A stretch of 33,247 nt of DNA from Thermoplasmatota archaeon (GTDB lineage: Archaea > Thermoplasmatota > E2 > JACPAO01 > JAHFTW01): the NCBI GenBank assembly GCA_041624075.1, contig JBFJVP010000001.1, positions 1 to 33,247 on the forward strand, given 5' to 3'. Shown here in pieces: positions 8,764-28,446 of this stretch. The translations under genes were made by a program, and so were the position numbers. The notes under the pieces are model-generated. The model saw only the letters and a program-made list of their open reading frames with translations. It made no database searches and was not told where the DNA came from. How positions within the stretch are numbered: the stretch's first letter is position 1; the number at the start of each line of letters is the position of its first letter.

Positions 8764-8789
8764 GGATAGAGGAGGGAGTCAGAATGGAC

Positions 8790-8993
8790 CTAGATGCAGA
8801 TGCCGTACCAACCGTAGTTGAGGTATTTGCCGTCGCAGGATCCGCCGTGCCAGCCTTCGCAGACGTACACGATGGTGCCAAGGATCTCGTCACCGGGATC
8901 GCCACAGGTGTGGGCTGCCGTGGCAGTGGGGGCAACGGCGACCGCGCCGATGGCGAGGCTAAGTGCAACGAGCAAGACGAGTTTGGTGCTCAT
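8790..8993 (-). CDS. small secreted four-Cys peptide, paralog P1 (67-aa precursor, about 41-aa mature)
   Basis: ATG 8993 gives MSTKLVLLVALSLAIGAVAVAPTATA|AHTCGDPGDEILGTIVYVCEGWHGGSCDGKYLNYGWYGICI. It has a Sec-type signal with an AxA site. It is one of four tandem paralogs. Against P2, the last 26 codons show 12 synonymous versus 3 nonsynonymous differences. Confidence 0.8.
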   Translation of the reverse strand: MSTKLVLLVALSLAIGAVAVAPTATAAHTCGDPGDEILGTIVYVCEGWHGGSCDGKYLNYGWYGICI

Positions 8994-12329: not shown

Positions 12330-13752
12330 CCGGACCCCGTTTGCGCGTCGTGCCCGGAGCAGCGGCGCGGCGGCCCGTTTTCCAGTTCACATGGCCCAAA
12401 TCGCCACCCTCCTTGACGTAGGCGCGTGCCTTCTTCAAGCTCTTGTGCAGGTGGCCAATGTGGACGACGGCGTTGCCGGGATTGGTCAGGGGCACCGTCG
12501 TCGTTGACAGGATGACACCGGATTTGGTTGCCTTCAATTCGTCCACGTGGCGACCAAACGGGTCATGGATGATGCCGATGCGTTGTTTCGCCCGAACCAA
12601 ATCGCCGGGCTCAACTTCGAGGTACAACAGTCCGCCATGGTCAGCGCGCACCCATTCGCTCTTGCGCACCAACACCTGGAAACCGGGTCGGACGGCCTTG
12701 GCCTTCACCATACCAAACGACCGCATGACGCCCATCACGCCGTTGAATCCAATCTGGACCACATGCTGCTGGAACCGACTGGGCTCTCCCGCTTCAAAGA
12801 TGATAGTGGGAATGCCGGCATTGGTGGCCGCCCGGCGCAGACTCCCGTCGGGCCCGGCCCCATGCATCATCACCGGCGTCCCAAACGCCCGCATCATGTC
12901 CCGCAGCGCCGGATCGTCGGCATCTCCCCGCACATGGCAGAGGTTTGCGCGGCCCGTGGCGGCGGTGTGGAGGTCGATGCCCGCGTCCGCGTGGCGCAGC
13001 ACCTTGGTGAACAACTGATGCGCGATGCGGCTCGCCATCGAACCAGTGGCGTCGCCCGGGAAGAACCGGTTCAGGTCCCGCCGGTCCGGCAGGTACCGAT
13101 CACCCGTCGGGAAGCCAAAACGGTTGACCACAGGCACTCCAATGAACGTGCCTGCCAGTTGGTCTGGCTCCAATCGATCAAGCACTGCCCTGACGACGGC
13201 CGTGCCGTTGATCTCGTCACCGTGGACGGCAGCCGTGGCAAACAGCGTCGGCCCCGGCTTGGTGCCCCGCACGACCGTGACGGGGATTCGTGCCGGCACA
13301 TGGGTCACTGCTTCGCTCACCTTGAGGTTGATTTCGGCAACATCGCCGGCCTTGACGGACCGGCCCGCGATGCGATGCACCTCCGACCAGTCGCGCGGCT
13401 TGGCCCACGCAGGCGGGCCGGCCCGGCTCTTGCCAGGCACCTCCTCGCCATTGGTGCGAACATCGGAAGGGCCATTGGATGCCGTTGCAGCCTGATCCTC
13501 CTCGGAGGCTTCGGTCGGCTGACGGGACAATTCTTCCGACAGGTCCGGGGTGCCAGATTCGACGGAGGCCTTGCGCGGCTTGCGAGCGGATGCTTTGGCC
13601 TTTGCAGCCGCACGACGCTTGGGCTTCGCCTTGGCCGCAACCGGGGCAACGGCCTCGGCATCATCAGGATCGGGAGAATCTGGCGCGTCGGCTGGCCGAC
13701 CAGGCGGATCGGACGAGCTGGCCCCACCCACCGAATCACCAGGAGGCGACAT
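12298..13752 (-). CDS. succinylglutamate desuccinylase/aspartoacylase-family (AstE/AspA, M14-like) zinc deacylase with a long disordered N-terminal extension
   Basis: 484 aa. The core motifs are AAVHGDEINGT (Zn ligands H..E), DLNRFFPG and GIDLHTA. The first 125 aa or so are low complexity, with an acidic/Pro stretch followed by the basic AKAKPKRRAAAKAKASARKPRKA. Its ATG overlaps the rimK stop (TGATG at 13750-13754). Confidence 0.85.
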   Translation of the reverse strand: MSPPGDSVGGASSSDPPGRPADAPDSPDPDDAEAVAPVAAKAKPKRRAAAKAKASARKPRKASVESGTPDLSEELSRQPTEASEEDQAATASNGPSDVRTNGEEVPGKSRAGPPAWAKPRDWSEVHRIAGRSVKAGDVAEINLKVSEAVTHVPARIPVTVVRGTKPGPTLFATAAVHGDEINGTAVVRAVLDRLEPDQLAGTFIGVPVVNRFGFPTGDRYLPDRRDLNRFFPGDATGSMASRIAHQLFTKVLRHADAGIDLHTAATGRANLCHVRGDADDPALRDMMRAFGTPVMMHGAGPDGSLRRAATNAGIPTIIFEAGEPSRFQQHVVQIGFNGVMGVMRSFGMVKAKAVRPGFQVLVRKSEWVRADHGGLLYLEVEPGDLVRAKQRIGIIHDPFGRHVDELKATKSGVILSTTTVPLTNPGNAVVHIGHLHKSLKKARAYVKEGGDLGHVNWKTGRRAAAPGTTRKRGPVKAPGGPAPG

Positions 13753-14645
13753 CAGCGAGCCACCCTCCGATGGTACTCCGCACAGAACCGAATCACTTCT
13801 CGCGCCACGTTCACGCCCGTGGCACGCTCCAGGCCTTGAAAGCCTGGACTCGCATTAACCTCGAGAATCTTCGGCCCATCACGGCTCTCCAAGAAGTCCA
13901 CGCCGGCCACCTGCAAACCCATCGCGTGGGCCGCCTCGATCACAACCAAGCGATCCGACGCCGACAATTCCAAGGGACGCCCTTGTCCGCCGCGGTGAAT
14001 GTTGCTGCGAAACTCCCCCAACTTGGCCTCGCGCCGCATCGCACCAACGACGTGGTCACCCACGACGAAAGCCCGAACGTCGCGGCCCTTGGCTTCCTTG
14101 ATAAACTCCTGCAGCAAGATCACGTGGCCCAAGCTCCAAAGCGTTTGCAGAATCGACTCGATGGCATCCCGGCTTTCCGCCAGCATCACTCCCACGCCAT
14201 GGGTGCCCTTGATAAGCTTCAAGATGCACGGCATCCCACCAACCAGCTCGATCGCCTGATCAATGTCCTCGGCGCTTCGAATCACCACCGTACGCGGAAT
14301 GTCAACATTGCACCGAGACAACACCTGAAACGACCTCAGCTTGTCCCGTGCCCGGAGAATCGACTGGCTTCCGTTGACCACGGTCACCCCCATCATCTCC
14401 ATTTGGTTGACGACCGCGCAACCAGCCTCCGTCACGCTGGCACCAATGCGAGGCACCACCACGTCCACATCGCGGCGCCGCAACGGCTCGCCCCTGACAT
14501 ACAGCTTCGGCGCACGCGCATGCAGCACCAGTTGCGTCTTGAGCACATCAAGCGTCCGCGCCGAGTGCCCCTGCCTCCGGCACTCCTCCATAAAACGGCG
14601 AATCGAGTGAAGCCGGGGTTCCCGCGTCAGGAACAGGAAGCGCAC
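13752..14645 (-). CDS. rimK: RimK-family ATP-grasp alpha-L-glutamate ligase
   Basis: 297 aa from GTG 14645 (VRFLFLTREP...). ATP-grasp motifs are GMPCILKLIKGTHGVGV, ILLQEFIKEAKGRDVRAFVVG, EFRSNIHRGG and GVDFLESRDGPKILEVNASPG. Archaeal relatives include the MptN, CofF and LysX types, so the substrate is unknown. Confidence 0.88.
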   Translation of the reverse strand: MRFLFLTREPRLHSIRRFMEECRRQGHSARTLDVLKTQLVLHARAPKLYVRGEPLRRRDVDVVVPRIGASVTEAGCAVVNQMEMMGVTVVNGSQSILRARDKLRSFQVLSRCNVDIPRTVVIRSAEDIDQAIELVGGMPCILKLIKGTHGVGVMLAESRDAIESILQTLWSLGHVILLQEFIKEAKGRDVRAFVVGDHVVGAMRREAKLGEFRSNIHRGGQGRPLELSASDRLVVIEAAHAMGLQVAGVDFLESRDGPKILEVNASPGFQGLERATGVNVAREVIRFCAEYHRRVAR

Positions 14646-14788: not shown

Positions 14789-15658
14789 TCAGGTGACGCC
14801 GATGCGCAGCAGGATGCGACCGTCACGGAAGATCCGCACCACGCCACTCTCGGACACCGTAATGGCGATCGCCTTGGTTTCCGTAGTAACGGCAGCCGCC
14901 GCCAAGTGCCTGCCTCCAAGCCCCGAAGGCAGGTCCGTAGGATCACGCACCTCAATGTAGCGGCCCGCCGCCTCGACGATGCCATCCTCACGAACCACGA
15001 TAGCGCCGTCAATCTGCGCGAACTCCTTGATCGTCTCCCAGGAACGCGCATCGAGCACGCTGCGCTCCTGGGGCGGGTGCCCAGCAAACGGATTGAGAAC
15101 GACCTGGCGGCTGTGGCGCAGTACCCGATCCGTGTCGCCAACAACAAACAGGGTCCCAACCGGGTTCTTCTCGCGGCCTTCACGGGCCAAGTCACGGGCC
15201 AGTTGCAGCACAGCCTCAACCACCCGGACGTCGGCGCGGTACTCCAAGTCCTTCTTCAGCTTCGCCACAGACTCGTCGTGGGCCATGTCGAAAGCCAGCA
15301 ATCCGAAGCCAGCCTCATCGCCCAACTCCACGACGACCAACCGCTCATCGGGCTCCAGTCGGCCCTCGACGTACGCCGTCAGCAGGATCTCACGTAACGC
15401 CTTGAGCGCGTTGATGCCACCACCCACGCGGTAGCCCAACTCCATCACGTCAACGTCCTCCCGGCCGGCAAAGCGGTCACCCGCACCCGGATGTGAACTA
15501 GCAATCAGCAGCGGAGGCCCCAAAGCCTCAATCCAGGTCTCCAATTGATCCAGATCCGTTCCAGTCAGAAGAACCCGTGAAGCCTGAAACCCATCCCGTA
15601 GGGTTCGCGCCTGCCCCAGAAGGTCCTCCATTGGCTCGGTGATTGCCTCCGCGCTCAT
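14789..15658 (-). CDS. dacZ: diadenylate cyclase, archaeal DacZ-type (N-terminal regulatory domain plus C-terminal DAC domain)
   Basis: 289 aa from ATG 15658 (MSAEAITEPMEDLL); the track start at 15733 would overlap the upstream gene. DAC motifs are GTLFVVGD, IDGAIVVREDG, GGRHLAAAAVT and AIAITVSESGVVRIFRDG. It has no TM segments, and an N-terminal soluble domain of about 150 aa as described for DacZ. Confidence 0.82.
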   Translation of the reverse strand: MSAEAITEPMEDLLGQARTLRDGFQASRVLLTGTDLDQLETWIEALGPPLLIASSHPGAGDRFAGREDVDVMELGYRVGGGINALKALREILLTAYVEGRLEPDERLVVVELGDEAGFGLLAFDMAHDESVAKLKKDLEYRADVRVVEAVLQLARDLAREGREKNPVGTLFVVGDTDRVLRHSRQVVLNPFAGHPPQERSVLDARSWETIKEFAQIDGAIVVREDGIVEAAGRYIEVRDPTDLPSGLGGRHLAAAAVTTETKAIAITVSESGVVRIFRDGRILLRIGVT

Positions 15659-15689: not shown

Positions 15690-18600
15690 CTACGGCAAGC
15701 GGCCCTCAGTTCCGCAGCTCGGGCAGGTGACAATCAAGGGGCGCTGCCCAGTGACCTGGAAATGCTGTTGGCAATTGGGGCACTGAGCCGGGTGGGGTCC
15801 GGCCGGCGGACCCGTCGAGGTCCCCGACGCAGCGGACGGCTCGGTTCGGCCCGCATCGGATCCGGGCTCCCAGGAGCCTTCATCGACCTCGGCCGTCGTC
15901 AGATCCTCCTCTGCGCCCGGCCACGCCGGCGGCTCATCCTCCAGCCACGTCGTTTCCTCGGGCTGGTCGGCCCACTCCTCGGCAAATTGGTCATCGTCCA
16001 CGCCAAACTCGTCTTCCGGCCGCTTGCTCAAACGGATGATCAGCCAGGCAATCAGGGCCACCACCACGAGCAGGATCAGCACCAAGGCGACCCAAACCCA
16101 GGAGGCAACACCACCGTCCACAGGGTCATCTTGCTGCTGGTCGGGCGTCACCGCCACGCCATCGCCCAAGAGGTCAAACCCAGGGATATCCCCGGGAGCA
16201 TCAGTGCTGGAATAGCCGCCCGCCGCTTGCGTGGAGAAATAAGCAGTCAACAGATACGTAGCATTCTCAGCAGCGCCCGAATCAGTATATTTCTCGGCCA
16301 CGAAAGCAGCCGAGCCAGCAACGATATTGCGGACCCGCTCAAAGGGACTCGTGCTGCGCCACAACTGCAAGCCCAGCACATCGGCGGGCAAATCACTGGG
16401 CAAGTCCCAAGTGATGACGTTGGAGAGGCCCTCCCGCTTCACCACGATGGAATCCCGCAGCTTGCGGTTCGTGTCCTTGATGTCCTGCTCGGTAAAGGAG
16501 GGCGTCGGGTCGTCCACGACCTTGCCGGGATCAAATTCGATGCCCGGACTGCGAACCGAAAAGAGCCCAATGTTGCCCGCGTGGTCAATGGCAGCAACCT
16601 GATAGTCGTACGTTCCAAACTCGGGAGGTGTATCCAGCAAGGTGGTCGTTCCGGCCGCCACGCGGTTTGGCAGAAGCTGGTTGTTGCGCTTGATCAGGTA
16701 TTCCTTCACCCCGCTGGTGGCGTCCTCCACCTGACTCCACGCCAGCAAGACTCGGCCAGACTGCAACGTTGCATTCGGCTGTGACGGCGTTGGCGGCTTC
16801 ACAGAATCAATCTTCAACGTCGGCGAAACCCGATCCGGCTCCTTGTTGCCCGCCAAATCCGTCGACGAGTATGTGATCTTCAGCTCGTCATCATTGGCCG
16901 GCAAGACAAAAGGCGCGCCGTAGGCCTTGTCTGACCCACTATCCAGCTTATATGTGGTCGTACCGGCCTCGTTGCGCGCCAACGTAACCGTCGGAGCGCT
17001 CGTGTACCAACCGTCTAGGCCCTGGGGCGTGGCCGGCGACAACGTCAACGTGGTAACGGGCGCAACCTTGTCCTGAGCCGCAATCTGGCTGGCGGCTGCC
17101 AATGAATTGGGCGGCGTGGCCAGATCCTTGAGCGTTCCTGGAACGTAGCTGACCTTCGGCGTCCGGCTTCCATCAAGAATCTCGTCGAAGACCAAGAAAA
17201 TGATGTTGTCGTTGGCGACGTTCGGCGTCAACGCCGTGCTCCCAGTCACCACCGACTTGGGCTTGCCAATGGTGCTGTCAATCACCCAGTGATCCTTGTT
17301 GAGATCGCTCGTCGTACCGGTGGAGTCGGCCACCGGTTCACTGAATGTGACCTTGAGCGCGTCCAGGCGACCATCGGTGTTGGAATCAACCGTCTCGACG
17401 AACTTGATCGTCGGCGGCGTCACATCCACGACACCCTTCTTCTGGGTGCTCGCGGCGACATCGCTGCCCTTGCGGAAAATGCTGTTGGCGGCAGCACCAA
17501 TACTGGTTGGCGTGCCATCAACGTCGGTTGCCGCCAAGGGCTGGTTGAGCGTCAACTCCACCTTTTCAGGTTCGGATGTCAGTGAGTGCTTGACTGCGGC
17601 AATGGAAGCCACCGCACTGCCGGAAGCAGCAGTGATCGCGAAATCACTGACTGCCAACGCGCCTCCAGCGCCGTCATCCACTTCTTCGCTGAAGGTAAGG
17701 ACGACCGTCTTGTTGCCAATGTTCCCGTGCGCAGACTTCAAGAACGGCTTGTCCGGAAGCAGCAGGACCGGACTGCCCAGGGCACTGTTGCCTGCAGCGT
17801 CTTTCACCTTGGCCGGCGTTGCTGCAATGCTGTCCGCGTTGAAGTCCGATTCAGCCAACGCTGCGTTCAGCGTGAACACGATGCCGGCCTGGCCAGCCGT
17901 ATGCGTTACGCTTCCAATCGCGCTGGCACCGCCAGTTGCCGCGTTGTCGTACGTGAAGTCCTCCTTCACGAGAGCAGCACCCGTCTCATCGCGCACCGGC
18001 TCGCTGAAGGCGCCACTTACCGTGGTGTCACCGGCGGCGACCGTGCTCAGCCCAAGCACCGGCTTGGCGCCATCGGTTTCAATCAGGCCGCCGGCACCAA
18101 TGGCAGCCAAGACGTTGTCCGCCAAATCGCGCAGGCCCGTGCCAGGCGTGTACGTGAGTTCGGGCTTGTCGCCGGAATCGCCCGAGGAGCCCTCGCTGAA
18201 GAGCACCGTAAAGATCGGGTCGCTGGCCGTGCCGGTGGACATTCCGGACACAGCGCGGCCGGCAACGGCCCACTCGGATGCATGGAGCGTGTTGTCATTG
18301 ACCGGCTCGCTCATGGTGACCAAGTAGCCATCGATCTTACCGTCGCTGTCAGCGTCCTGGGTCACGGCCGACAGGGCAATCGGGGGCGCCCGATCCAGCG
18401 CCACGCGCAAATCAGCCCGATCGGCCAGAACCTTTCCCGCCGGATCGACGATTCTGGTGCCTTGATCCACGGCGTAGCGGTACGACGGAGTCGAACCACT
18501 GGTGCCCTCTGCCGTGAACGTAATGCGAAGAGTGCTAACCGAGGCACCAACGCCTTCCAAGGCCTTGTTGCCGCAGGTGCACTCGGTGACAGTGAAGTCG

Positions 18601-19646
18601 CTGACGTGGGCTGCCGATGCGTCGACCAGTTCGCTCAAAACTAGATCGAGGCCGGAAATCTTGCCGGCGCCGTCGCCACGGGTAGCTGCCGAGACCACGA
18701 AAGGAGCCACATCGTCCCGCTCGGTAACGTCGTTGGTGGCAACAACCAAGGCGCCACCACGAGCCGATCGCGCTGCGCCGCCAGCAGGGTAGGTGAGATC
18801 CGGCTTCAGGCCAGTGTTGACGGCGCTGCCCTCGGCGAATCGGATCGTAGCCGTGCGGGCCGTGCCATTGGCATTGGCGGTCGCATCCAAGCCGGTGGCA
18901 GGAACACCACCCACCAGGAATTCTGCGGCATTGAGCGTGTTGACCACCATGTCGGTGTCAAATGTCACGGCCAACGCATCGATCTTGCCGTTGCCATTGG
19001 CATCACGGGTCAAGGCCGATGTGATCTTGGGCGGAGGGGGCGCCTGCACAGTGATCGCAAACGTTGACGTCTGCGTGGGCTCATTCTGAACAGGCGGAAC
19101 CACGCCATGGGTGCCCTTCACATCGATGCTGAATGTGCCCGTCGAAGCGCTCGGTCGCACGTTGACATCAAGAGTGAACTCATGGGTCTGCCCGCCTTGG
19201 AAGGGACCGCCAGCGCCCCCTGCGGATGGTCCGCCAGCGCTGAAGGTGACCGTCAGGTTGTCGGCGCCGACGGCTGCCGATGAACCTTGCCACGTGGACG
19301 TGGCCTCGCCGGTCCGGAACCGCAACGGGCTGGTTGCGCCCTCCTTGAGCGTAAAGGTCAGCGACGCCAACGACGCCTCCGGACCTCCCGGATTCGTCAC
19401 GGAGACCTTGATCGAGTGGTCAACGGCCCCCAACTGCACTGTCGTGGTCGCTGCATTGGGCGCAAGCTGAAGCGCGTGGCCAGCCTGCACACTCGGAACC
19501 AGTACGAACAGGAGGAGCAGCGCCACCGCCACGGCACGCAGGTCACCGACCTTTCCTCGTGAAATAGACGCGATGCGGAATGTCAATCGAGCACCTTCTC
19601 GGATTGCCGTGGCCCGCTGCGAGGCAGAATGGCCAAAGCTATGCAT
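15690..19646 (-). CDS. giant surface protein A (1318 aa): signal peptide, Ig-like/DxDxDG modules, FN3-like module, TM anchor, acidic tail, C-terminal zinc ribbon
   Basis: The ATG at 19646 is preferred over GTG 19679 because TTTTTATTTT ends 18 nt upstream. The hydrophobic signal is RAVAVALLLLFVLVPSVQA. Four ...T.D.D.DG.ID...V.F(S/D)E.. modules are present. The TM is WVWVALVLILLVVVALIAWLIIRL (16029-16100). A 112-aa acidic tail ends in CPNCQQHFQVTGQRPLIVTCPSCG. Confidence 0.85.
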   Translation of the reverse strand: MHSFGHSASQRATAIREGARLTFRIASISRGKVGDLRAVAVALLLLFVLVPSVQAGHALQLAPNAATTTVQLGAVDHSIKVSVTNPGGPEASLASLTFTLKEGATSPLRFRTGEATSTWQGSSAAVGADNLTVTFSAGGPSAGGAGGPFQGGQTHEFTLDVNVRPSASTGTFSIDVKGTHGVVPPVQNEPTQTSTFAITVQAPPPPKITSALTRDANGNGKIDALAVTFDTDMVVNTLNAAEFLVGGVPATGLDATANANGTARTATIRFAEGSAVNTGLKPDLTYPAGGAARSARGGALVVATNDVTERDDVAPFVVSAATRGDGAGKISGLDLVLSELVDASAAHVSDFTVTECTCGNKALEGVGASVSTLRITFTAEGTSGSTPSYRYAVDQGTRIVDPAGKVLADRADLRVALDRAPPIALSAVTQDADSDGKIDGYLVTMSEPVNDNTLHASEWAVAGRAVSGMSTGTASDPIFTVLFSEGSSGDSGDKPELTYTPGTGLRDLADNVLAAIGAGGLIETDGAKPVLGLSTVAAGDTTVSGAFSEPVRDETGAALVKEDFTYDNAATGGASAIGSVTHTAGQAGIVFTLNAALAESDFNADSIAATPAKVKDAAGNSALGSPVLLLPDKPFLKSAHGNIGNKTVVLTFSEEVDDGAGGALAVSDFAITAASGSAVASIAAVKHSLTSEPEKVELTLNQPLAATDVDGTPTSIGAAANSIFRKGSDVAASTQKKGVVDVTPPTIKFVETVDSNTDGRLDALKVTFSEPVADSTGTTSDLNKDHWVIDSTIGKPKSVVTGSTALTPNVANDNIIFLVFDEILDGSRTPKVSYVPGTLKDLATPPNSLAAASQIAAQDKVAPVTTLTLSPATPQGLDGWYTSAPTVTLARNEAGTTTYKLDSGSDKAYGAPFVLPANDDELKITYSSTDLAGNKEPDRVSPTLKIDSVKPPTPSQPNATLQSGRVLLAWSQVEDATSGVKEYLIKRNNQLLPNRVAAGTTTLLDTPPEFGTYDYQVAAIDHAGNIGLFSVRSPGIEFDPGKVVDDPTPSFTEQDIKDTNRKLRDSIVVKREGLSNVITWDLPSDLPADVLGLQLWRSTSPFERVRNIVAGSAAFVAEKYTDSGAAENATYLLTAYFSTQAAGGYSSTDAPGDIPGFDLLGDGVAVTPDQQQDDPVDGGVASWVWVALVLILLVVVALIAWLIIRLSKRPEDEFGVDDDQFAEEWADQPEETTWLEDEPPAWPGAEEDLTTAEVDEGSWEPGSDAGRTEPSAASGTSTGPPAGPHPAQCPNCQQHFQVTGQRPLIVTCPSCGTEGRLP

Positions 19647-19664
19647 CGTTCCAGGGGCCTTGGC

Positions 19665-19674
19665 AAAATAAAAA
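19665..19674 (-). promoter_or_regulatory. TATA box (TTTTTATTTT) for surface protein A, leaderless spacing
   Basis: This is the strongest AT-rich element in the window and ends 18 nt upstream of ATG 19646. Confidence 0.5.
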
Positions 19675-19676
19675 CG

Positions 19677-19698
19677 CACCGCTTTCCGCGAGGCGGTG
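19677..19698 (-). terminator. hairpin (CACCGC-10 nt-GCGGTG) followed directly by the T-rich tract, downstream of surface protein B
   Basis: The minus strand reads CACCGCCTCGCGGAAAGCGGTG CG TTTTTATTTT, starting 42 nt after the B stop (19741-19743). The T tract is also the TATA box of gene A. Confidence 0.4.
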
Positions 19699-19740
19699 GG
19701 GGAAGGATAGAAGGAAGAAGATCAAAGCGGTTCGGCGCGC

Positions 19741-22700
19741 CTAACTCAGCACGCCGCGCACGCCGCAGGACGGGCAGGTGGTCGTCAGCGGGCGCTCGCC
19801 CTCAACCGCGAAGTCGGCCGCACAGGACGGACACTCAACGTCATGCACCGGAAGCATCGCCATGGCCATGCCATTGCCAGAAGCCGTGACGTACGGCTCA
19901 TGCGTCGGGGGAACATTCTCCACCTCAGCCTCGACATCGTCCGCGGCGCCCTCGTCCGACCACTCCGACTGATCCCACTCGTCGGCGCCCCACCGGTAGG
20001 CGACAGGATCGTCCTCCTCCATGGCATCCTGATCGCGGCGGCGAGCCACGACGATCAAGGCCACCAGGAGCGCCACGACCGCCAAGGCGCCCAGACCAAT
20101 AAGGATCCAACCCCACGTCGGGAAGCCAGACTCGTCAACGACCACCGTGTCACCCTTCAAGCCGGACGGGAACACCACGGTGTTGTTGGCGTCCGAGAAC
20201 TTTCCGAGTTCTTCGCTGTCACCGAAGAACAACGTGACGATGTATTGGGTGGAGACCTTGGCCTGCTCGCCCGTGTGCAACAAGGCAGCACTCGTGAACT
20301 CAGGGTCCGTGTCCTGTAGCGTCTTGAGAAGCTGGTAGGGACTGTTGCTGTACCAAACCTGCAAGCCCTTCACGGCAGCAGGCAGGTCGTCCGGCAGCAC
20401 CCACTTGATTCGGTTGCCACCCTCGACGCGCTCAACAGTCAACTGGACCTCTTCACGAAGCTTGGCCAGATCTTGGCTGGTCAGAGCCAACACCGAGAAA
20501 GCATACGTGTCCTGGGGGCCCAGGCCGCCATCACTGGCAGCGCGCACGTGCAGGTAGCGGCGACCGTTGGCCAAACTATCGAGCGTAACCTCCGTCGCCG
20601 TGGTCTGTTCATCCGTCGCCACCACGGTGTAGTCCTCCTGAGTGTTCACTGCGTAATGGAAACGCAAGGATGTTTCCGGATCGGAAACACCACTCCACTT
20701 GAAGGTCCCCGAACGCAGCGTCGAGATGAAGCCGGCGCCATGCGTCTCGGACGTAATGGTTAGCGTGCCCGTGGGGGGCGTCGTGTCCTCCTTGGTCACG
20801 GCGGACACGGACGAACTGACGGGACCCGCATTGCCGGCGCCATCCAGCACCCTGAGCGCGAAGTGGTACGTGGTCTTGGGCGCCAAACCGGTCACCGTGA
20901 AGGCCTCGGCCTGACCCGACGCCTTGGGCGCCGGCAAACCGTTGACCGCCGTCGCGCTTGCGAAGTTGGAGGCCGTGATGGCCGCCGAACTGTAGCGCAA
21001 TTCGTACGCCGTTGCGGTGCCCGTATTGCCGTTGTTGCCCGTTGCACCCCAGCGCAACGTAACGGTGGTAGCCGTGATGTCGTCTGCGGCCGGGCTTTGC
21101 ACCGTCACCGCGCCAGGAGCCACCGTGTCAATGATGATCTGGAACGGTGCAGCCTGGCTGGCCCCACCGTCACTCATGGCAGCCACATGGAAGTAGTAGG
21201 TACCATCCTCCTGGGAAGGCAGAGTCACCGTTGTCTGCGTGGTCTCCGTATCTGTTGCGGTCACCGTGTAGGTTGCCTGGGTCGACAGCTTGTAACGGTA
21301 GACAACCGCACTGTCCGGGTCGCTGACTGCGGTCCATGAAACCACCGGCACCTTGGTCGTGCTCGGCACACCGCTGGTGTGTGTGGACGAACTGACAACC
21401 GGTTGCCCGGCGGGAGGCGTGGAGTCCTTGGTGGTCGTGAACGAGATCACGTTGGACACTTCACCCGTGTTTTCCACCTGGTCAATGGCGCGCAAGGCAA
21501 CCCAGTACTTCGTCTCGGTCGTCAAGCCGGTGAGTGAGAACTCTTGCGAGGTACCGCCGGTTTGCGGAGCGGGCGGCGGCGTAACCGCCGTGGCCTGAGC
21601 GAAGTTTGCGGCCGTAATCTCGGTTTGGCTGATGCGGATGTCATAGCGGTCTGCCGGGTCGGACTCAAAGGCGTCGTCGCCCGGCGCCGTCCAAGTCAAA
21701 ACCGCGCCGTTTCCGACAACGGAGCCAGTCTTGACCCCCAAGTCGGTGATCTTGCCGGGGGCCACTGTATCGGCCACGGTTGTAACAGCCAGCACGTTGG
21801 ACATCTGGGCCACGTTGCCCACACGATCCGTCGTCTTCATCGCAAAGTGGTACTTCGTGTTCGGCGTCAAGCCGGTGAGCTGCAGCTCCTGCATCGCGCC
21901 TGGCGTCGGGGCAGGAAGCCCAGCCACCACCGTAGCGGACCCGAACGTCGTCGACGTGATTTCACTGGTCGACTGACGCAGTTCAAAGCTCGCAACATCC
22001 GGCGCAGACGGCGTCGTCCACTGCAGGGTGAGAGCCCGGCGAGCCAACGTATCTGCCTTCACAGCCAAGTCCGTAATCTGGCTCGGCGGCGTCAGATCCG
22101 CCTTCACGGGATGCGTTGTCGCCGCCACGCGGTTGTCGGCTGCATCCTTGATCTTGTCAGCCAACACACCGATGGTATCCTTCTCGTTGTCCGATTCCGC
22201 AAACGGCCCATTGAGCGACACGGAGAGCTTCCGTCCACTAGTGTGCGGCGTAATCGAGGTCAAGCCGCTGGCGCCATCGCCACTGACATCCGTGTACACG
22301 AAGTCCGTCAAGGCAAACGAAGCGCCCACCGGCTGGATAGGTTCACTGAACTCCAAGTCAACGTGTTGGCTCTGCAAGCCACTGCTGACCGCGCGCAGGA
22401 ACTGGGGCGCCACGCCATCGATCTCAGTGATGGCAGCCGTCCCAATGGCCCGCAATCCGTTGCCCGCCAAATCCGTCAACGTCGCAGTGGGGGTGTACGT
22501 CAGCTGCGGCTTGGCACCGGTGTCCAGTACACTGGATTCCACGAAGGTTACCGTAATCTGGGCATCATCAACCGACGCACCCGTCAGGAAATCATCAACG
22601 GACGTACCCTCGACAGCCCACTCGCCTGGCTTGAACGTGCTGTCGTCAATGGCTTCCGAGAACTCCAACTCGTAGCCATCGATCAAACCATTGCCATTCA

Positions 22701-25700
22701 GGTCAGCGGTAGTGGCGGTCAGCAAGCGGGGAGCCACCTGATCCTTGGGCGTATGGGTCAAAGCACCACCAACACCGTTTCCACTCAGGTCCTTAAGAGT
22801 CGTGGCCGCCGACAAGCTCACCGCAGGTGTAGCGGCCGTGTCGAAGTTCGTCCCGGCCGTGCCAACCTCATCGAATAGCAGGTAAACCAGGGCGTCGTCA
22901 ACGCTGCCCGTCGTAAGCGTCGTCTGAACGCCCGTCGGCTGATTGTTGGCATCCCCGTAGGGCGCCGCCAAAGTCCATTGAGACGGCACCAAGTGGGGAA
23001 TCCCTTCGGTCCGGTCGTCAATGTCTTCACTGAAGGTAACCTGGATTCCGTCGATCAGTCCGTCGTCGTCGCGGTCCAAGGTCGCCATCTTGCTGATGAT
23101 CGGCTTGGCGCCATCGATTGCCTGGTGGGAAGCGGCCAGCATCTTGTTACCGGCTGCATCCGCGATCGTGGCCGTTGGCGTGTACGTGATGGTTGGCAGG
23201 AAGCCTGTGTTGTGAGCCGCGTCGGCCACCGGATCCACGAAGTCCAACTGAATCTTGTCGTCGCCCGCAGCCGACCCTGTTCCAATGGCCAGGGGTCGCC
23301 CGCGAGCATCCGCCAACGATGCCGGCAGGCCCCACTCGCTCTTGTCGAGCGTCGCAGCCCCACCATCGTCGATGGCCTCACTGAAGGTTACGATCACATG
23401 ATCCAGGTAACCATCCTCATCGACGTCTTGCGTCACCGCCTTCACAATGACCGGGGCCGCCCCATCAGCCTCATCGAGGCCCCCGGCAGCGGCGGCACCG
23501 GCGCTGACGGCATGCAAGTTGTTTCCAACCAAGTCCGTCACGCCGTCGCCACCCAGGTAGCTCAGGTCGGGCAGGGAGCCCGTGTGTAGAGCGCTAAGCT
23601 CGTCGAAGAGGACACGAACCACATCGTCGTCAGCGGTGGCACCCGTATCGACGTTGGTCACGGTCGCCCCGGCCACGCTCCACAGTACATCGTCCAATGA
23701 ACCGTCTTCAAGCGCCTCAGAGGCAGTCACAGCGTAGCCGTCGATGAGCCCATCTCCGTCCACATCGAGCGTCTTGGCACCGACGACGATCGGCATGGCT
23801 CCATCCGTGGTCGCAAATGTCCGACCGCCGAAGATGTGCCCGTCGTGGTCAATGACGCGACCAGCCGAACCCGGCGTGTAACGCACACTGGGCGTACTAG
23901 CCGTATCATAGCCACTGGCAGCCTCGGCGAACGTGATGAAGATCGTGTCGTCGTCAACGTCGTCTGCGCCCGCCAGGAAATTGGGGTGCTGAGTCAGGAC
24001 ACTGATGGCCGCCACGTCGCCGCCCGCACGCACGATCTTCCAATCGGCCGCGACCAGGTTGGCATTACCCACTCCGTCCTGAATCGCCTCGTCGAAGGTC
24101 ACACGAATCGCGTCGATCCGGCCATTGGCATCCACATCCAGCGTAATGGCCTCGACGACAACCGGCCCGTTAAGATCCACAAAGGACACCTCCGTATCCG
24201 GCGAAATCAGGCAATCCACGGCAGGGCCACAGGTACCACTGCGGTACTCTTGGACGGCGTTGGGGGCGGCGCCGATGCGATCCTCGTCGAAGTCAGCCGC
24301 GTTTAGTAGCGCATCGAGCGTGAGGATCGCGAAATCGTCGCCCTCTACGTGGGACACGCCATCAATTCCGGTTGCGCCGCCGCTGGCCGAGTTCACAAAC
24401 GTAAACGAAGCGACACCCAGAGCGCCACCATCACGGGCACGGACAGCTTCGCTGAAGCGGACCTCAACAGTTGCCGAACCAGGTGTACCGCCCAGCGCCC
24501 CAATGACTGCAGGGGCGCCATCACTGGCCGTCATTTGCAGAGCACCCACAACATTGCCGGCGGAGTCCGTCAGGCTGCCTCCGGCAGCGTGCGTGACATC
24601 CGGCGCCAGGGACGTGTCAAAGCGAGACGACTCTGCAAAAGGCACGAGAATGAAGGCGTCATTGACGGCGCCGTCATCGCCAACTTGGGCACCGATGGCT
24701 GGCTGCGCCGTCGCCCAGAAGCCAGAAGTATCGGCCACGACCCAGTCATCCGGGTCGAAGGACGAGTCAGCCACGTTCTCGCTGAATTCGACCAGGATCG
24801 CGTCAATGCGGCCATCATCATCCAAGTCGCGGGTCTGCATTCCCATCACGACGGGGGCCGCCCCATCGGTGGCCTCTCGGTCGGAGAAATCCTCCAAGAG
24901 GTTGCCCAGCAGGTCGGCGATTCCAGCCGTCGCCGCGAAGCTGACGTCGGGCGTCACTTCGGTGTCTGTACCAGACGAAATAGGTGCCAGCCTCAGGATG
25001 ATCACGGCGTCGTCGGCCACGGCACCAGTTTCGATGGAAATCGGGTGGTCATTGGCGTCGCCGTACGGAGCCTGGATCGTCCATTGGTCAAGATCCAGCG
25101 CGCCGTCCTCGATGGGCTCCGTAAACGTCACGATCAACTGATCGATGCGGCCGTCCGGCGCGCCGGGGTCATCGCGCGTCACGATCGACTCGATCTCAGG
25201 TGCCTGCGTGTCCGTGATCTCCACGGCCACACCACCCACGACCGCCTTGCCGCCCGCAGCCGACGTCTCCGTTACCGTTGTGCGGGGCTGAATCGTATCC
25301 GAAACCGATCCGCCCAGACCATGGTCCGCTCCCGTGGCAGAAAGCGCCCGGTTGAGGGTAATCGTTGCCGTGCGGTCGCCGGACGAATGGGTGATGCTGG
25401 CAATGCTGCCCGCAGCCACGCCGTTGCGGTTCAGGTATTGTAGATTTGCAACGGTCAAGGCATTGTTGCTGCCAGTGCCGCGCACGCCTTCACTGAAGAA
25501 CAATTCAGCCTGGGTGCTGCCAGGGTTCCCCTGGACTCGCATCAGGCGGGGCAATGCGCCATCCGTGACGGCCTGGCTGGTGACTTGGCCCAGGGGGTGC
25601 CCGTTGTGATCGACGATCCGGCCAGCGAGATAGTTGATGGCGGGTCGCTCCGCCGTGTCTCCATCTGGCTTCTCCGTCGTTTCCTCAGCAAGGATCAAGA

Positions 25701-28446
25701 AAATCGTAGCGTCGTCCGTGTCCCCCGCAGCACCAGTGAGGCTCGTCACAACGCTGGAGGGGTGGCCGTCCGCATCGCCGTACGGCGCGGCCAAGGTCCA
25801 GTCCGCTGCACGCAGGGTCGAAGCGCCAGCAAACGAATCACGAATGGCCCGATCGAAAGTCACCTCGATGGCATCGATGTAACCGTTGCCGTCCCGATCA
25901 AGCGTCTTGGCTGCACTGATGGCAGGCGCGTCCGGATTGGTGAGCTTGACCATCAGGGGTGCGACCGGCAAGCCATCCGACTGGCCGACGATCTTGGCCA
26001 CAACGGCGCCGACGGTGTCACGGTTGATATCACCTGAAGCCACGGGCGCATTGAAGTCCAACAATGCCCGGGCGCCATCCGTGGCGGCGTTGTGACTGAC
26101 ACCGGAAATGGCCGTCGCCCCACCGCTGTTGACGTTGATGAACGCCAGCGCGTCAGAGGTAAGGTCGCCGCCGATGGCGAGTTCGACCGGCTCACTGAAC
26201 AGGACCATGCCACCACTGGAACCCGGTGTCGCCAGGATCTTGGTGATGATCGGGGCCACGCCGTCGTCGACGCGCAACTGGAAAGCCTCAGCGGGCACGC
26301 CCGCCAAGTCCTTGAGGGTCGCCGCAGGCGTGTAGTGGAGAATCGGTCGGATCGCGGTGTCAGACAATCCCGATTCCGGGATCTTGACCGACACGTATGT
26401 GTCATTCTCAACGTCGGTCGTAAACCCTGAGGCCAATTGGGTACTCACAGTCCACGTGTTTCCGTCGTCCTCCACACTAAACTCATCGGCATCCAGCGTG
26501 GAATCGTCGATGGGCTCGCTGAACACGACACCCACGGCGTCGACTTGCCCGTCACCGTCACGATCCTCCGTCGCCAAAGACTCAACGACCGGCGGCGCAC
26601 CGTCGATAGACGCCACATCCGCCTCGTCAGCCATGACATTCCCCAACAGATCCACCAACGCAGTGCCCGTGTAGGTAACCGTCGGGGTGGAAGCGGTGTC
26701 GAAGCCTGCCGCCACGCCATCGAAGTTGAGGTACAAACGGTCAATGTTGCCGACGGGTGTCGACGCACCAAGAGGCGCAGCGGTCACCGAATCCGGCGCG
26801 CCGACGCCGTCGATGTTCCAGAGAGTCGCGTCAAACGCGCCGTTGACCGACTTGTCGAAGAACTCCGTCAGCAGAACCTCGAGCGCGTCGATCGAGCCGC
26901 TGCCGTCCCCGCGCGTCGTTACGCGCTCGATACTGGGAGCCGTCGTGTCGACCAAGTCAAGGGACGTAGCCGGCACGACGATTCCTCCACCTCCGGGAGC
27001 AAACGCCTCGTCAGCCAAGATCTCGACCGCGAGCACGGAGCCACCGCCGACGCCGGCGTCCGTGGGACTCACCTTGTCATCAAAGGTGATCAGCGCCTCC
27101 GAGTCGCCGGCTTGGTGTGAAACCGACACGATGGACGTAACCGTTCCGCCCGGAACCTGGTGCACGGTAAAGGAAGTCTCGTTGAGCCCTCGCCCGTCGG
27201 CGTTCTCAACAGGTCCGTTGAAGACCATGGTAGCAACCTTGGATCCAATGGAACCCGTTAGGTCCGTGGCCTTCGGGGAGTCGATCGTGAGTGTGACTGC
27301 GGGGCCGGGGTTGCCGTGCTCGTCCTCAGCCGCGCCTTCCACGATACCAAGGGTGTCGGCGCCGAGGCCTGCTGCGGTGATCGCCGCATCCAGTTCGACC
27401 GTTGCCATAGCATCGCCAGCGGTATGAGACACGGAAGTGATCCCATCACCGGCGGCGCCGCCGTTGTATGTGAAAGAGTTGGCATCCAAGGCGGTCGCGG
27501 ACGCCTCGTGCAGAACCACCAGAACCTGAGCGCTGTCAACGGCGCCACTGGCAACGACGGGAACGGGTCCAGCCCCATCGGTTTCCGTGACGCCATCGGA
27601 GGCCAGCGCAGCAAGGGCGTTGCCGTAGACATCCGTGAGAGTGCCGGGTGTGTAGGTGATGTCAGGAATGGCATCGGTACCGCGAACGTCCGGGAAGGAG
27701 ACGATGATCACGGCATCGTTGGCCGCGTCGCCGGTGGAAGAACCCGTGGGCGGCGCGCCGTTGACCATGAAATCGGCTACCGCCACGGAGGAATCGAGGA
27801 TCGATTCGCTGAACGTGATCTCAATGGCATCGTAGGCGCCATCGGCGTTCAGGTCACGGGCCACTGCCGCGTCGACGGCGGGCGGGTCAACATCAAGCGT
27901 AACCGTGAGCGTCGCGGTGTTGATACGGCCGCCAGCGTGTTGGCTGCGAACCTGAACGTCCAGCGTGTCGCCATCCGAAAACACGCCAGAGGTCTGCAAG
28001 GCGACCGTGAAGGTTTGGCTGGAACCTGCCGGAATCGTGCTTCCCGTAAAGGAGAGCACATTGCGGCCGCCGGCTCCAGTGTTGTCGGCCGACGCGGCCC
28101 ACCCTGTCGCGCCGGAATCAGCGGCGCTGAAGGTGGCAGTCCGGTCGCCAGTGTTGACACGGAACTCCACCAGGTTGTAAGCGTCGCCGCCCGAGTCGTC
28201 GGGGAGCGCGTTCTGGGGATTGGACACCGTAATGTCCCGGCTGAAGATCGAGCCGGCCCCGATGGTCACGCCGGTTGGCGAGATCGTCATGGCAGGGTGG
28301 AGGTTCGCGTCGGTGTGCGTGGCGGCCGCTGGCAAGGCCGTCAACAGGACGGCCATTGGAGCCATGACAAGCAGGGCTACAATCAGCGTGGCAGTCAGCG
28401 GGCTTGCAGATGGCGACCCGGTGGTCGCCTGGATGGCTCGGTTCAC
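19741..28446 (-). CDS. giant surface protein B (2901 aa), paralog of A: signal peptide, 11 DxDxDG-bearing Ig-like modules alternating with a second module type, 3 FN3 plus 2 FN3-associated modules, TM anchor, acidic tail, C-terminal zinc ribbon
   Basis: The start is GTG 28446 (GAGGGT SD-like element upstream), with signal LTATLIVALLVMAPMAVLLTALPAAA. FN3 hallmarks are present (LTLQWTTP...YHFAMKTTDRVGN, VLTWTAPGDD...YWVALRAIDQVEN, VTLRWGATG...YHFALRVLDGAGN). The TM is WGWILIGLGALAVVALLVALIVVA (20044-20115). A 100-aa acidic tail ends in CPSCAADFAVEGERPLTTTCPSCG. Confidence 0.88.
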   Translation of the reverse strand: MNRAIQATTGSPSASPLTATLIVALLVMAPMAVLLTALPAAATHTDANLHPAMTISPTGVTIGAGSIFSRDITVSNPQNALPDDSGGDAYNLVEFRVNTGDRTATFSAADSGATGWAASADNTGAGGRNVLSFTGSTIPAGSSQTFTVALQTSGVFSDGDTLDVQVRSQHAGGRINTATLTVTLDVDPPAVDAAVARDLNADGAYDAIEITFSESILDSSVAVADFMVNGAPPTGSSTGDAANDAVIIVSFPDVRGTDAIPDITYTPGTLTDVYGNALAALASDGVTETDGAGPVPVVASGAVDSAQVLVVLHEASATALDANSFTYNGGAAGDGITSVSHTAGDAMATVELDAAITAAGLGADTLGIVEGAAEDEHGNPGPAVTLTIDSPKATDLTGSIGSKVATMVFNGPVENADGRGLNETSFTVHQVPGGTVTSIVSVSHQAGDSEALITFDDKVSPTDAGVGGGSVLAVEILADEAFAPGGGGIVVPATSLDLVDTTAPSIERVTTRGDGSGSIDALEVLLTEFFDKSVNGAFDATLWNIDGVGAPDSVTAAPLGASTPVGNIDRLYLNFDGVAAGFDTASTPTVTYTGTALVDLLGNVMADEADVASIDGAPPVVESLATEDRDGDGQVDAVGVVFSEPIDDSTLDADEFSVEDDGNTWTVSTQLASGFTTDVENDTYVSVKIPESGLSDTAIRPILHYTPAATLKDLAGVPAEAFQLRVDDGVAPIITKILATPGSSGGMVLFSEPVELAIGGDLTSDALAFINVNSGGATAISGVSHNAATDGARALLDFNAPVASGDINRDTVGAVVAKIVGQSDGLPVAPLMVKLTNPDAPAISAAKTLDRDGNGYIDAIEVTFDRAIRDSFAGASTLRAADWTLAAPYGDADGHPSSVVTSLTGAAGDTDDATIFLILAEETTEKPDGDTAERPAINYLAGRIVDHNGHPLGQVTSQAVTDGALPRLMRVQGNPGSTQAELFFSEGVRGTGSNNALTVANLQYLNRNGVAAGSIASITHSSGDRTATITLNRALSATGADHGLGGSVSDTIQPRTTVTETSAAGGKAVVGGVAVEITDTQAPEIESIVTRDDPGAPDGRIDQLIVTFTEPIEDGALDLDQWTIQAPYGDANDHPISIETGAVADDAVIILRLAPISSGTDTEVTPDVSFAATAGIADLLGNLLEDFSDREATDGAAPVVMGMQTRDLDDDGRIDAILVEFSENVADSSFDPDDWVVADTSGFWATAQPAIGAQVGDDGAVNDAFILVPFAESSRFDTSLAPDVTHAAGGSLTDSAGNVVGALQMTASDGAPAVIGALGGTPGSATVEVRFSEAVRARDGGALGVASFTFVNSASGGATGIDGVSHVEGDDFAILTLDALLNAADFDEDRIGAAPNAVQEYRSGTCGPAVDCLISPDTEVSFVDLNGPVVVEAITLDVDANGRIDAIRVTFDEAIQDGVGNANLVAADWKIVRAGGDVAAISVLTQHPNFLAGADDVDDDTIFITFAEAASGYDTASTPSVRYTPGSAGRVIDHDGHIFGGRTFATTDGAMPIVVGAKTLDVDGDGLIDGYAVTASEALEDGSLDDVLWSVAGATVTNVDTGATADDDVVRVLFDELSALHTGSLPDLSYLGGDGVTDLVGNNLHAVSAGAAAAGGLDEADGAAPVIVKAVTQDVDEDGYLDHVIVTFSEAIDDGGAATLDKSEWGLPASLADARGRPLAIGTGSAAGDDKIQLDFVDPVADAAHNTGFLPTITYTPTATIADAAGNKMLAASHQAIDGAKPIISKMATLDRDDDGLIDGIQVTFSEDIDDRTEGIPHLVPSQWTLAAPYGDANNQPTGVQTTLTTGSVDDALVYLLFDEVGTAGTNFDTAATPAVSLSAATTLKDLSGNGVGGALTHTPKDQVAPRLLTATTADLNGNGLIDGYELEFSEAIDDSTFKPGEWAVEGTSVDDFLTGASVDDAQITVTFVESSVLDTGAKPQLTYTPTATLTDLAGNGLRAIGTAAITEIDGVAPQFLRAVSSGLQSQHVDLEFSEPIQPVGASFALTDFVYTDVSGDGASGLTSITPHTSGRKLSVSLNGPFAESDNEKDTIGVLADKIKDAADNRVAATTHPVKADLTPPSQITDLAVKADTLARRALTLQWTTPSAPDVASFELRQSTSEITSTTFGSATVVAGLPAPTPGAMQELQLTGLTPNTKYHFAMKTTDRVGNVAQMSNVLAVTTVADTVAPGKITDLGVKTGSVVGNGAVLTWTAPGDDAFESDPADRYDIRISQTEITAANFAQATAVTPPPAPQTGGTSQEFSLTGLTTETKYWVALRAIDQVENTGEVSNVISFTTTKDSTPPAGQPVVSSSTHTSGVPSTTKVPVVSWTAVSDPDSAVVYRYKLSTQATYTVTATDTETTQTTVTLPSQEDGTYYFHVAAMSDGGASQAAPFQIIIDTVAPGAVTVQSPAADDITATTVTLRWGATGNNGNTGTATAYELRYSSAAITASNFASATAVNGLPAPKASGQAEAFTVTGLAPKTTYHFALRVLDGAGNAGPVSSSVSAVTKEDTTPPTGTLTITSETHGAGFISTLRSGTFKWSGVSDPETSLRFHYAVNTQEDYTVVATDEQTTATEVTLDSLANGRRYLHVRAASDGGLGPQDTYAFSVLALTSQDLAKLREEVQLTVERVEGGNRIKWVLPDDLPAAVKGLQVWYSNSPYQLLKTLQDTDPEFTSAALLHTGEQAKVSTQYIVTLFFGDSEELGKFSDANNTVVFPSGLKGDTVVVDESGFPTWGWILIGLGALAVVALLVALIVVARRRDQDAMEEDDPVAYRWGADEWDQSEWSDEGAADDVEAEVENVPPTHEPYVTASGNGMAMAMLPVHDVECPSCAADFAVEGERPLTTTCPSCGVRGVLS

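Follow-up and report, generated by a model that had tools for sequence, protein, structure and literature searches.

The stretch of DNA analysed here, referred to as the window, comprises 33,247 nucleotides (nt) of a Thermoplasmatota archaeon (GTDB lineage Archaea; Thermoplasmatota; E2; JACPAO01; JAHFTW01; GenBank assembly GCA_041624075.1, contig JBFJVP010000001.1, positions 1 to 33,247 of the forward strand). It has a G+C content of about 64% and is coding almost entirely on the minus strand. Two of its genes encode large proteins, A and B, which are predicted from their sequences to be type I membrane-anchored surface proteins with a common conserved anchor cassette. In each of them a signal peptide precedes a large beta-sandwich ectodomain, and a single cassette makes up the C-terminal end; in this cassette a helix and an FN3-like domain are followed by a transmembrane (TM) helix, an R/K stop-transfer, a disordered acidic Trp-rich tail and, at the exact C-terminus of both proteins, a predicted zinc ribbon of 30 residues (CPxC-x15-CPxCG). 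The features of the two proteins are listed below, with the residue numbers of A following its maximal open reading frame (ORF).

19741..28446, minus strand: protein B, 2901 amino acids (aa), with a signal peptide, about 2600 aa of beta-sandwich repeats, in which the motif-bearing ones are followed by at least three FN3 domains and a PKD-like one, and then the cassette
28321..28446, minus strand: putative signal peptide of B, aa 1-42, ending in ...TALPAAA before THT, with a hydrophobic stretch at aa 14-43 and an Ala-x-Ala-like end
20128..20502, minus strand: membrane-proximal module of B, aa 2649-2773, a short helix and then a predicted FN3-fold beta sandwich
20044..20118, minus strand: TM helix of B, aa 2777-2801, TWGWILIGLGALAVVALLVALIVVA, followed by RRR
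19852..20043, minus strand: predicted cytoplasmic tail of B, aa 2802-2865, acidic and predicted to be disordered, with the Trp motifs AYRWGADEWDQSEWSDE
19744..19851, minus strand: predicted terminal zinc ribbon of B, aa 2866-2901, PVHDVECPSCAADFAVEGERPLTTTCPSCGVRGVLS, with the stop codon at 19741-19743
15690..19679, minus strand: protein A, maximal ORF of 1329 codons, with a signal peptide, Ig-like repeats, an OmpL47-type barrel-like segment, an FN3-like region and the cassette
19482..19586, minus strand: putative signal peptide of A, from the TTG start to ...VPSVQA before G
16134..16508, minus strand: membrane-proximal helix and FN3-like module of A, aa 1058-1182, the fold of which would be that modelled for the B cassette
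16035..16103, minus strand: TM helix of A, aa 1193-1215, SWVWVALVLILLVVVALIAWLII, followed by RLSKR
15801..16034, minus strand: predicted cytoplasmic tail of A, aa 1216-1293, acidic, with the Trp motifs EEWADQPEETTWLEDEPPAWPG...GSWEPG
15693..15800, minus strand: predicted terminal zinc ribbon of A, aa 1294-1329, GPHPAQCPNCQQHFQVTGQRPLIVTCPSCGTEGRLP, with the stop codon at 15690-15692

The TTG at 19586 is the probable start of A, which makes the protein 1298 aa long; its ortholog P0001 (1291 aa) begins at that position, which speaks against the ATG and GTG further upstream. Proteins A and B hold six Cys each, four of which are the ribbon ligands. A six-frame scan of the window found the ribbon in A and B only; four other CxxC...CxxC strings were set aside as chance occurrences, since they do not have the CPxC/CPxCG ribbon consensus.

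An earlier note on this DNA had claimed that the two giant surface proteins share a C-terminal cassette at 15693-16439 and 19744-20433. The two ends are indeed homologous: in a single pairwise comparison, the last 245 or so aa of A and 225 or so aa of B are 33% identical (E=8e-24), and the coordinates are right to within a few codons, with the homology beginning about 25 residues further upstream, at the helix that precedes the module. The alignment spans the juxtamembrane module (NVITWDLPSDLPADVLGLQLWRSTSPF...YLLTAYF in A and NRIKWVLPDDLPAAVKGLQVWYSNSPY...YIVTLFF in B), a single, strongly hydrophobic TM helix (Kyte-Doolittle maxima of 3.5 for A and 3.1 for B), the basic stop-transfer (RLSKR in A and ARRR in B), the acidic tail with spaced Trp and the terminal ribbon (CPNCQQHFQVTGQRPLIVTCPSCGTEGRLP and then the stop codon in A, CPSCAADFAVEGERPLTTTCPSCGVRGVLS and then the stop codon in B), so that every element named in the note is present in both proteins.

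The cassette also defines a family, a point that the earlier note had proposed to check. An exhaustive HMMER search of 1.84 billion cluster representatives, made with a two-sequence profile of A and B, returned 289 matches at E<=1e-3, 118 at E<=1e-10 and 26 at E<=1e-30. The best two, P0001 and P0002 (2901 aa, the length of B), are orthologs of A and B with sequences that are not identical to them. Retention of the cysteines was assessed among members chosen by the extracellular module alone, a choice that is independent of the ribbon. A TM helix follows the module in 130 of 132 such matches, the tail has at least 35 residues in 115 of the 130, and both CxxC pairs are kept in 114 of these 115, the single remaining member looking frameshifted. 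Furthermore, the chain ends exactly 7 residues past the last Cys in 111 of 122 proteins. The family consensus begins with T...I...N in the helix and N.V.W.LP..LP....GVQ.WR..SP....D.....YLVT....G in the module, continues with ..PG.., W.W-TM-RR and an acidic tail with [YAG][AG]W[DEP][ED] motifs, and closes with H...CPxC...F.A.G..PL.T.CPxCG..G.LR-COOH. All source names seen for family members were 'hypothetical protein'. Every Pfam and NCBIfam model stays below its cut-off on cassette and ribbon alike, so that the cassette corresponds to no sorting domain described there, and searches of the full-text literature brought up no account of the architecture.

A word-indexed search of 5.8 billion proteins returned no match with the A cassette and one match with a 40-sequence profile. 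It thus missed a family of hundreds of clusters, probably because low-complexity words of the tail and TM helix dominated the choice of candidates. As the exhaustive search succeeded where the indexed one failed, the null result of the latter is not read as absence.

Genome loci were collected with a degenerate DNA pattern of the ribbon (CP.C...F...G..P[LIVM-type codon]...CP.CG..G), which undercounts the family. It matches 45 stretches in GTDB species representatives and none in viral contigs. All but a few of the 45 come from Thermoplasmatota/Thermoplasmata metagenome-assembled genomes from sand, soil and groundwater. The remaining loci are loosely labelled 'Methanobacteriota', 'uncultured Halobacteriales' or 'bacterium', together with one 'Gemmatimonadaceae' contig; some of the 'bacterium' and 'uncultured Halobacteriales' contigs carry acyl-CoA dehydrogenase genes 70-74% identical to that of the window and therefore belong to its lineage. 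Several contigs, like the window, bear two or three copies. Because the arrangement recurs in more than 110 cluster representatives and in these 45 loci, chance and an assembly artefact are excluded; misassembly, frameshift and artificial fusion are also ruled out by the architecture being kept in orthologs and paralogs.

The proteins are predicted by sequence rules to be type I (N-out, C-in) and single-pass, with an N-terminal hydrophobic segment that reads as a Sec-type signal peptide, a single C-terminal TM helix and a charge bias. Across 130 family members, the 15 residues past the TM helix hold 3.2 K+R on average, against 0.55 before it. Since the signal peptides and this positive-inside bias agree, the tail and ribbon are predicted to lie in the cytoplasm, where the earlier note had placed them.

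An AlphaFold2 model of the cassette, built on a 40-sequence alignment with B as the first row, gives a short helix and a beta sandwich at a predicted local distance difference test (pLDDT) of 86-98, a long TM helix, a tail of low confidence (pLDDT 46-63) and a four-strand ribbon (pLDDT about 95). In Foldseek searches against the PDB, the best matches of the sandwich are FN3 domains (probability 0.99-1.0, TM-score for the target 0.5-0.6). The juxtamembrane module, which is modelled at pLDDT above 90 and was previously described only as homologous in A and B, is for this reason assigned on the model as a divergent FN3-fold domain with a preceding helix. Its family consensus is N.V.W.LP..LP....GVQ.WR..SP...D....YLVT. 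Pfam fn3 has no significant match to the modules of A and B and reaches E<=0.01 in 2 of 40 cassettes (best 0.0013). Throughout the family, a conserved [IVY]PG[FYT] motif closes the FN3-like module and lies some 26 residues ahead of the TM core (in A at aa about 1168-1172, window about 16165-16180); it resembles the PGF of PGF-CTERM, in the wrong position.

The tail is rich in acidic residues (D+E 24% versus K+R 5%), and A, P and G are plentiful. Trp makes up 3.0% of the tails versus 1.0% of the ectodomains, a 3-fold enrichment (p=9e-36). Of the 187 Trp in tails, 128 lie no more than three positions from at least two acidic residues.

No part of the proteins is better conserved than the ribbon. 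Between each protein and its ortholog, identity is 89% for A and 94% for B in the ribbon, 64% and 86% in the TM helix, 71% and 63% in the FN3-like module, 60% and 63% in the ectodomain, and 53% and 52% in the tail. Mean column identity across the family is 57% in the ribbon versus 23% in the whole cassette. The four Cys are invariant in the cassette and ribbon alignments, and the conserved non-ligand positions include an H at -4, F, G, P-L and G.LR. With two CxxC knuckles and two beta-hairpins in the model, the domain has the features of a zinc beta-ribbon and would bind zinc. Modelled alone in AlphaFold2, it forms four strands at pLDDT 91. The best Foldseek matches are LysW, ZitP, Tim15 and ribosomal eS27, with E-values that are non-significant for a query of 36 residues; LysW is the best structural match (TMq 0.72, root-mean-square deviation 1.1 A), and ZitP (2nb9) is second (TMq 0.72, probability 0.96, but E=0.68). 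A profile match to 2nb9 (E=0.004) covers the Cys knuckles only. Below threshold the ribbon matches many zinc-ribbon families, the best being Zn_ribbon_8, Zn_ribbon_4, Zn_ribbon_5 and TIGR02098/GltJ. Zn_ribbon_4 and Zn_ribbon_5, which are of the MJ0042 type, match 49 of 50 ribbons, all below cut-off (for B, 23.1 against 30.3 bits), while MJ0042_CXXC matched 6 and GltJ 4 of 40 cassettes at E of about 2e-4. The top PDB profile matches, designed C2H2 zinc fingers, are spurious: they depend solely on a TGEKP-x-CPxCG look-alike string, and family members lack a His pair.

Nucleic-acid binding is common among zinc ribbons, and weak generic matches to TFIIB, TFIIS and ribosomal ribbons could be taken to mean that this one tethers DNA or RNA to the membrane. 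These matches, however, stay below the family cut-offs and are limited to the Cys knuckles. The net charge of the ribbon ranges from -7 to +6 in the family, which argues against a common role in nucleic-acid binding, and the ribbon of B is net acidic and preceded by a strongly acidic tail. Nucleic-acid binding by the ribbon is therefore unlikely, and a membrane tether for DNA or RNA is highly improbable, the least likely of the explanations weighed here.

Three known proteins offer precedents for a ribbon that docks a protein. The ribbon of ZitP docks PopZ, and that of GltJ binds a motif in its own linker and MglB, acting as a switch with MglA-GTP (PMC11135422). These MJ0042-type proteins (ZitP of Caulobacter, GltJ of Myxococcus; TIGR02098, PF13717, PF13719) resemble the cassette in having a cytoplasmic four-Cys ribbon, a flexible low-complexity linker, a single TM helix and an extracytoplasmic domain. 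In ZitP and GltJ, however, the ribbon is N-terminal, whereas here it stands at the extreme C-terminus of type I signal-peptide proteins, so that the order is mirrored. The present carriers are giant repeat-rich archaeal surface proteins and have no GYF domain, the ribbon consensus given above is a different one, and the profile scores fall below the curated cut-offs. With neither an above-cut-off profile nor the N-terminal ribbon-linker-TM order, the cassette is not placed in the MJ0042 type, although its mirrored layout of TM helix, flexible linker and ribbon would function in a similar way.

The third precedent is archaeal. CdpC of Haloferax volcanii (HVO_0399, DUF7093) is tethered to the membrane and has a long disordered linker and a C-terminal CPxCG-type ribbon, which binds FtsZ1 in a Cys-dependent manner (bioRxiv 10.64898/2026.07.16.738847). 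In contrast to A and B, it is a peripheral protein held by an amphipathic helix, has neither ectodomain nor TM helix, and carries two ribbons that flank the linker. DUF7093 is absent among the Pfam matches listed for the cassettes and ribbons. For the cassette, no link with cell division is seen. Cytoplasmic zinc-ribbon docking on membrane proteins is known already, and what would be new is its use in archaeal surface-protein anchoring.

In LysW, as here, a zinc ribbon is combined with an acidic Trp-containing segment, and LysW is also the top weak sequence match, below cut-offs. It is, however, a small soluble carrier in which the acidic EDWGE tail lies C-terminal to the ribbon and ends in Glu; the order is reversed in the cassette, the C-terminus of which is G.LR.

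The ribbon is not confined to giant adhesin-like proteins, the carriers described in the earlier note. On those, the ectodomains in front of one and the same cassette vary among TIG/IPT, FN3, PKD and unrecognised Ig-like repeats, but the ribbon also ends polytopic and small membrane proteins. In the same genomes it terminates proteins with four to five TM helices, very small single-pass proteins, and proteins of about 500 aa that combine an ectodomain with three further TM helices and a long tail rich in Pro and Ala. The subfamily of about 500 aa is found at loci L010, L011, L012, L020 and L037, with Pro/Ala-rich tails of 110-156 residues. At L020 there is an overlap between this gene and the end of a gene for a ZIP-family zinc transporter, homologs of which recur in L010-L012. 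At L044, a stop-to-stop ORF of 35 codons (1658-1737, plus strand) encodes the ribbon alone, MFRCPKCGTTFQVSGESPLTVVCPKCGTKGTLK, and may be a free-standing version of the module. Among weaker matches, four lysine-rich archaeal surface proteins (P0072, P0105, P0108 and P0143), probably from low-G+C sources, bear 3-7 tandem ribbons past the TM helix, in the order signal peptide, ectodomain, TM helix, 'PWEEEE'-type acidic Trp motif and tandem CPKC...RPLTI.CPKC ribbons. The theme therefore extends beyond Thermoplasmatota. Hence, the ribbon is a portable module of membrane proteins, predicted to be cytoplasmic, and the full cassette (FN3-like domain, TM helix, tail and ribbon) represents the form that it takes on Thermoplasmatota surface proteins. 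The presence of a single type of ribbon on so many carriers, with two to three paralogs per contig, fits a portable module that is read by a common cytoplasmic factor.

We tentatively favour the reading, at a little short of even confidence, that the ribbon is a cytoplasmic protein-protein docking module for one common partner, the partner itself being something that we infer, as did the earlier note, which had also counted nucleic acid among the candidates. This reading rests on the ribbon being the most constrained part of the proteins, on its fixed C-terminal position, on its many carriers and, by analogy, on the precedents of ZitP, GltJ and CdpC. On the cell exterior, a stalk that varies in its Ig-like, FN3, PKD or TIG repeats would end in the family-specific FN3-fold domain at the membrane. 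One helix would cross the membrane, and a flexible acidic tail with short Trp-acidic motifs would lead to the four-Cys ribbon inside. The ribbon, probably together with the Trp-acidic motifs, would dock a protein partner and thereby tie varied surface and membrane proteins of these Thermoplasmatota to one cytoplasmic scaffold, cytoskeletal filament or regulator. Such docking might serve positioning, clustering or outside-in coupling.

The occurrence of the cassette on unrelated ectodomains and in several paralogs per genome is also reminiscent of a sorting tag. Accordingly, the ribbon might be a fast-folding plug or handle for a dedicated insertion, sorting or quality-control factor, which makes very long Sec substrates halt at the TM helix and remain anchored. 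Its position at the exact C-terminus and the lack of a PGF-CTERM-type signal agree with this. A TM helix with an R/K cluster is, however, normally enough as a stop-transfer, and a plug needs neither to end polytopic proteins nor to occur in 3-7 tandem copies. In addition, no candidate processing enzyme is conserved in the neighbourhood, and a biogenesis or retention role appears unlikely.

PGF-CTERM/archaeosortase and other C-terminal sorting signals of archaeal surface proteins are known parallels for such a tag, as they too are common to otherwise unrelated surface proteins of one organism and include a TM helix and then basic residues. In the cassette, by contrast, 35-140 tail residues and a folded ribbon follow the TM helix, and PG[FYT] lies about 26 residues before the TM core instead of at its start. 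NCBIfam sorting-signal models gave no match in 40 cassettes. GG_III-CTERM (NCBIfam) was rejected, as it covers the TM helix only and reaches 16.5 against 22 bits in 3 of the 40. Nothing points to cleavage of the cassette.

Conservation of the membrane-adjacent parts on both sides of the membrane, with distal ectodomains that vary, could alternatively reflect self-association, in which the ribbons, with or without the FN3-like domains, bind each other and build a lattice or patches, an S-layer-like coat that is organised at its membrane face and has no need of a separate partner. In addition, the genomic position of one copy is conserved throughout the clade, which would be expected of a major envelope protein. 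On the other hand, a ribbon charge of -7 to +6 fits poorly with one conserved homotypic interface, and unrelated polytopic proteins also end in the ribbon; this explanation is regarded as quite unlikely.

The genes around A and B, from high to low window coordinates, are as follows.

Before the transglutaminase-like gene: Trp/Tyr-tRNA synthetase gene
30159..31985, minus strand: transglutaminase-like protein, 608 aa
28697..30064, minus strand: TSP3_bac-repeat protein, 455 aa, with weak similarity to Myxococcus MtsD/CglD
19741..28446 and 15690..19679, minus strand: proteins B and A (see above)
14789..15658, minus strand: DacZ-like diadenylate cyclase gene, genomic context that may or may not belong to the cassette system
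13752..14645, minus strand: RimK-family ligase
12298..13752, minus strand: AstE/aspartoacylase-family protein
Between the AstE-like and acyl-CoA dehydrogenase genes: membrane permease-like ORF
7517..8968, minus strand: acyl-CoA dehydrogenase
2439..7274, minus strand: protein of 1611 aa made up nearly entirely of thrombospondin type-3 (calcium-binding) repeats
Last in the order: thiolase gene

Further envelope-type genes flank A and B (two for TSP3-repeat proteins and one for a transglutaminase-like protein), and the region for this reason looks like a cell-envelope island. Within the ectodomain of B, aa about 190-2050 (window about 22300-27880) hold at least eight repeats with a DxDxDGxxD calcium-loop-like motif, followed about 10 residues past each motif by V(T/E)FSE; V.FSE.V occurs 11 times. 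No Pfam model recognises the Ig-like repeats of this ectodomain. The interval from the B stop codon to the A start (window about 19655-19740) holds a GC-rich inverted repeat, ccgcctcgcggaaagcggtgcg, and after it TTTTTATTTT. These elements may act as a terminator of B, as a TATA-like promoter element of A or in both roles, and suggest that A has its own transcription unit.

The DacZ-like gene begins 32 nt past the stop of A. Members of an ordered block of dacZ, rimK, an astE-like gene, the permease gene and the acyl-CoA dehydrogenase gene follow a ribbon-protein gene in 14 genome loci, or 15 with the window (7517-15658, minus strand); these include L002, L003, L004, L014, L016, L024, L026, L028, L032 and L042. 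Different members have been lost in different lineages, such that the ribbon gene is followed by rimK in L032, by the permease gene in L003, L028 and L042, and by the acyl-CoA dehydrogenase gene in L004 and L016. As the deletions vary by lineage, the block looks like inherited gene order and not like a functional operon. The pattern is taken to reflect positional orthology, in which a single ancestral ribbon-protein locus has kept its place while its ectodomain evolved fast, and is not taken as evidence for any one neighbour as the partner. All-versus-all clustering of the ORFs in the loci found no recurrent neighbour beyond this block, except for a separate block at the ribbon protein of about 500 aa.

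The same neighbourhood could suggest signalling, in which the tail or ribbon contacts the DacZ-like cyclase or the RimK-type ligase and passes surface load or adhesion on to cyclic di-AMP (c-di-AMP) and osmotic homeostasis. A dacZ homolog follows the ribbon-protein gene in eight loci (the window and seven others), usually within tens of bases. The DAC/DacZ models match only the C-terminal half of the DacZ-like protein (residues 164-311 of the maximal ORF), which leaves about 160 N-terminal residues outside the model, and the fold of the ribbon resembles that of LysW, a carrier handled by RimK-family enzymes. Elsewhere, however, rimK, the permease or the acyl-CoA dehydrogenase directly follows the ribbon gene, as in a decaying ancestral order, and most ribbon genes, including that of B, do not adjoin dacZ. 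The RimK of the window is closest to S6-glutamate ligase and not to LysX, and the C-termini of the family are not Glu-rich. Together with the reversed order of ribbon and acidic segment, these two points also led to the rejection of a LysW/RimK link as the principal explanation. Signalling through either neighbour is considered very unlikely.

Several observations weigh against the docking reading itself. The only recurrent neighbours form a housekeeping block with the look of inherited order, not of an operon, and the clustering of neighbourhoods for a partner gene gave no candidate. The strong conservation of the ribbon might also stem from the folding demands of so small a domain, from binding of ribbons to each other or from their recognition by a biogenesis factor. 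A short basic tail and no ribbon are seen in about 15 of the 130 module-bearing matches; several of these are contig-end fragments and some may be real ribbon-less variants, so the extracellular module can probably exist without the ribbon. Finally, both zinc binding and topology are predictions.

Only a few ways of anchoring and organising archaeal surface proteins are known, namely archaeosortase and PGF-CTERM, lipoboxes, plain TM anchors and SlaB-type stalk proteins. For uncultured Thermoplasmatota, to our knowledge, next to nothing is known about surface-protein anchoring. With the cassette, a further mode would join these: a conserved anchor extending into the cytoplasm through a folded, strongly constrained ribbon. 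Its signature could annotate more than 100 'hypothetical' giant proteins, and the 36-residue ribbon could be used as bait for components beneath the membrane of these archaea.

Eukaryotic adhesion receptors (integrins, cadherins and Ig/FN3 cell adhesion molecules) likewise combine a repeat ectodomain, a membrane-proximal FN3 or Ig domain, a single TM helix and a motif-bearing tail that recruits adaptors. The resemblance is one of analogy: homology goes no further than the generic FN3 fold, and these receptors are not known for zinc-ribbon tails. If the partner is cytoskeletal or regulatory, docking would provide an archaeal form of outside-in coupling, a principle that now rests on ZitP, GltJ and CdpC. 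The cassette might even mark an unrecognised archaeal system of physical or signalling coupling through the membrane, a counterpart of focal-adhesion or integrin-type linkage in which, by way of the ribbon and the Trp-acidic motifs, giant adhesin-like and some polytopic proteins of largely uncultured Thermoplasmatota are plugged into a common scaffold or cytoskeleton in the cytoplasm. This larger proposal is doubtful; if it is true, the multi-ribbon versions in other archaeal lineages would make such coupling a general archaeal principle.

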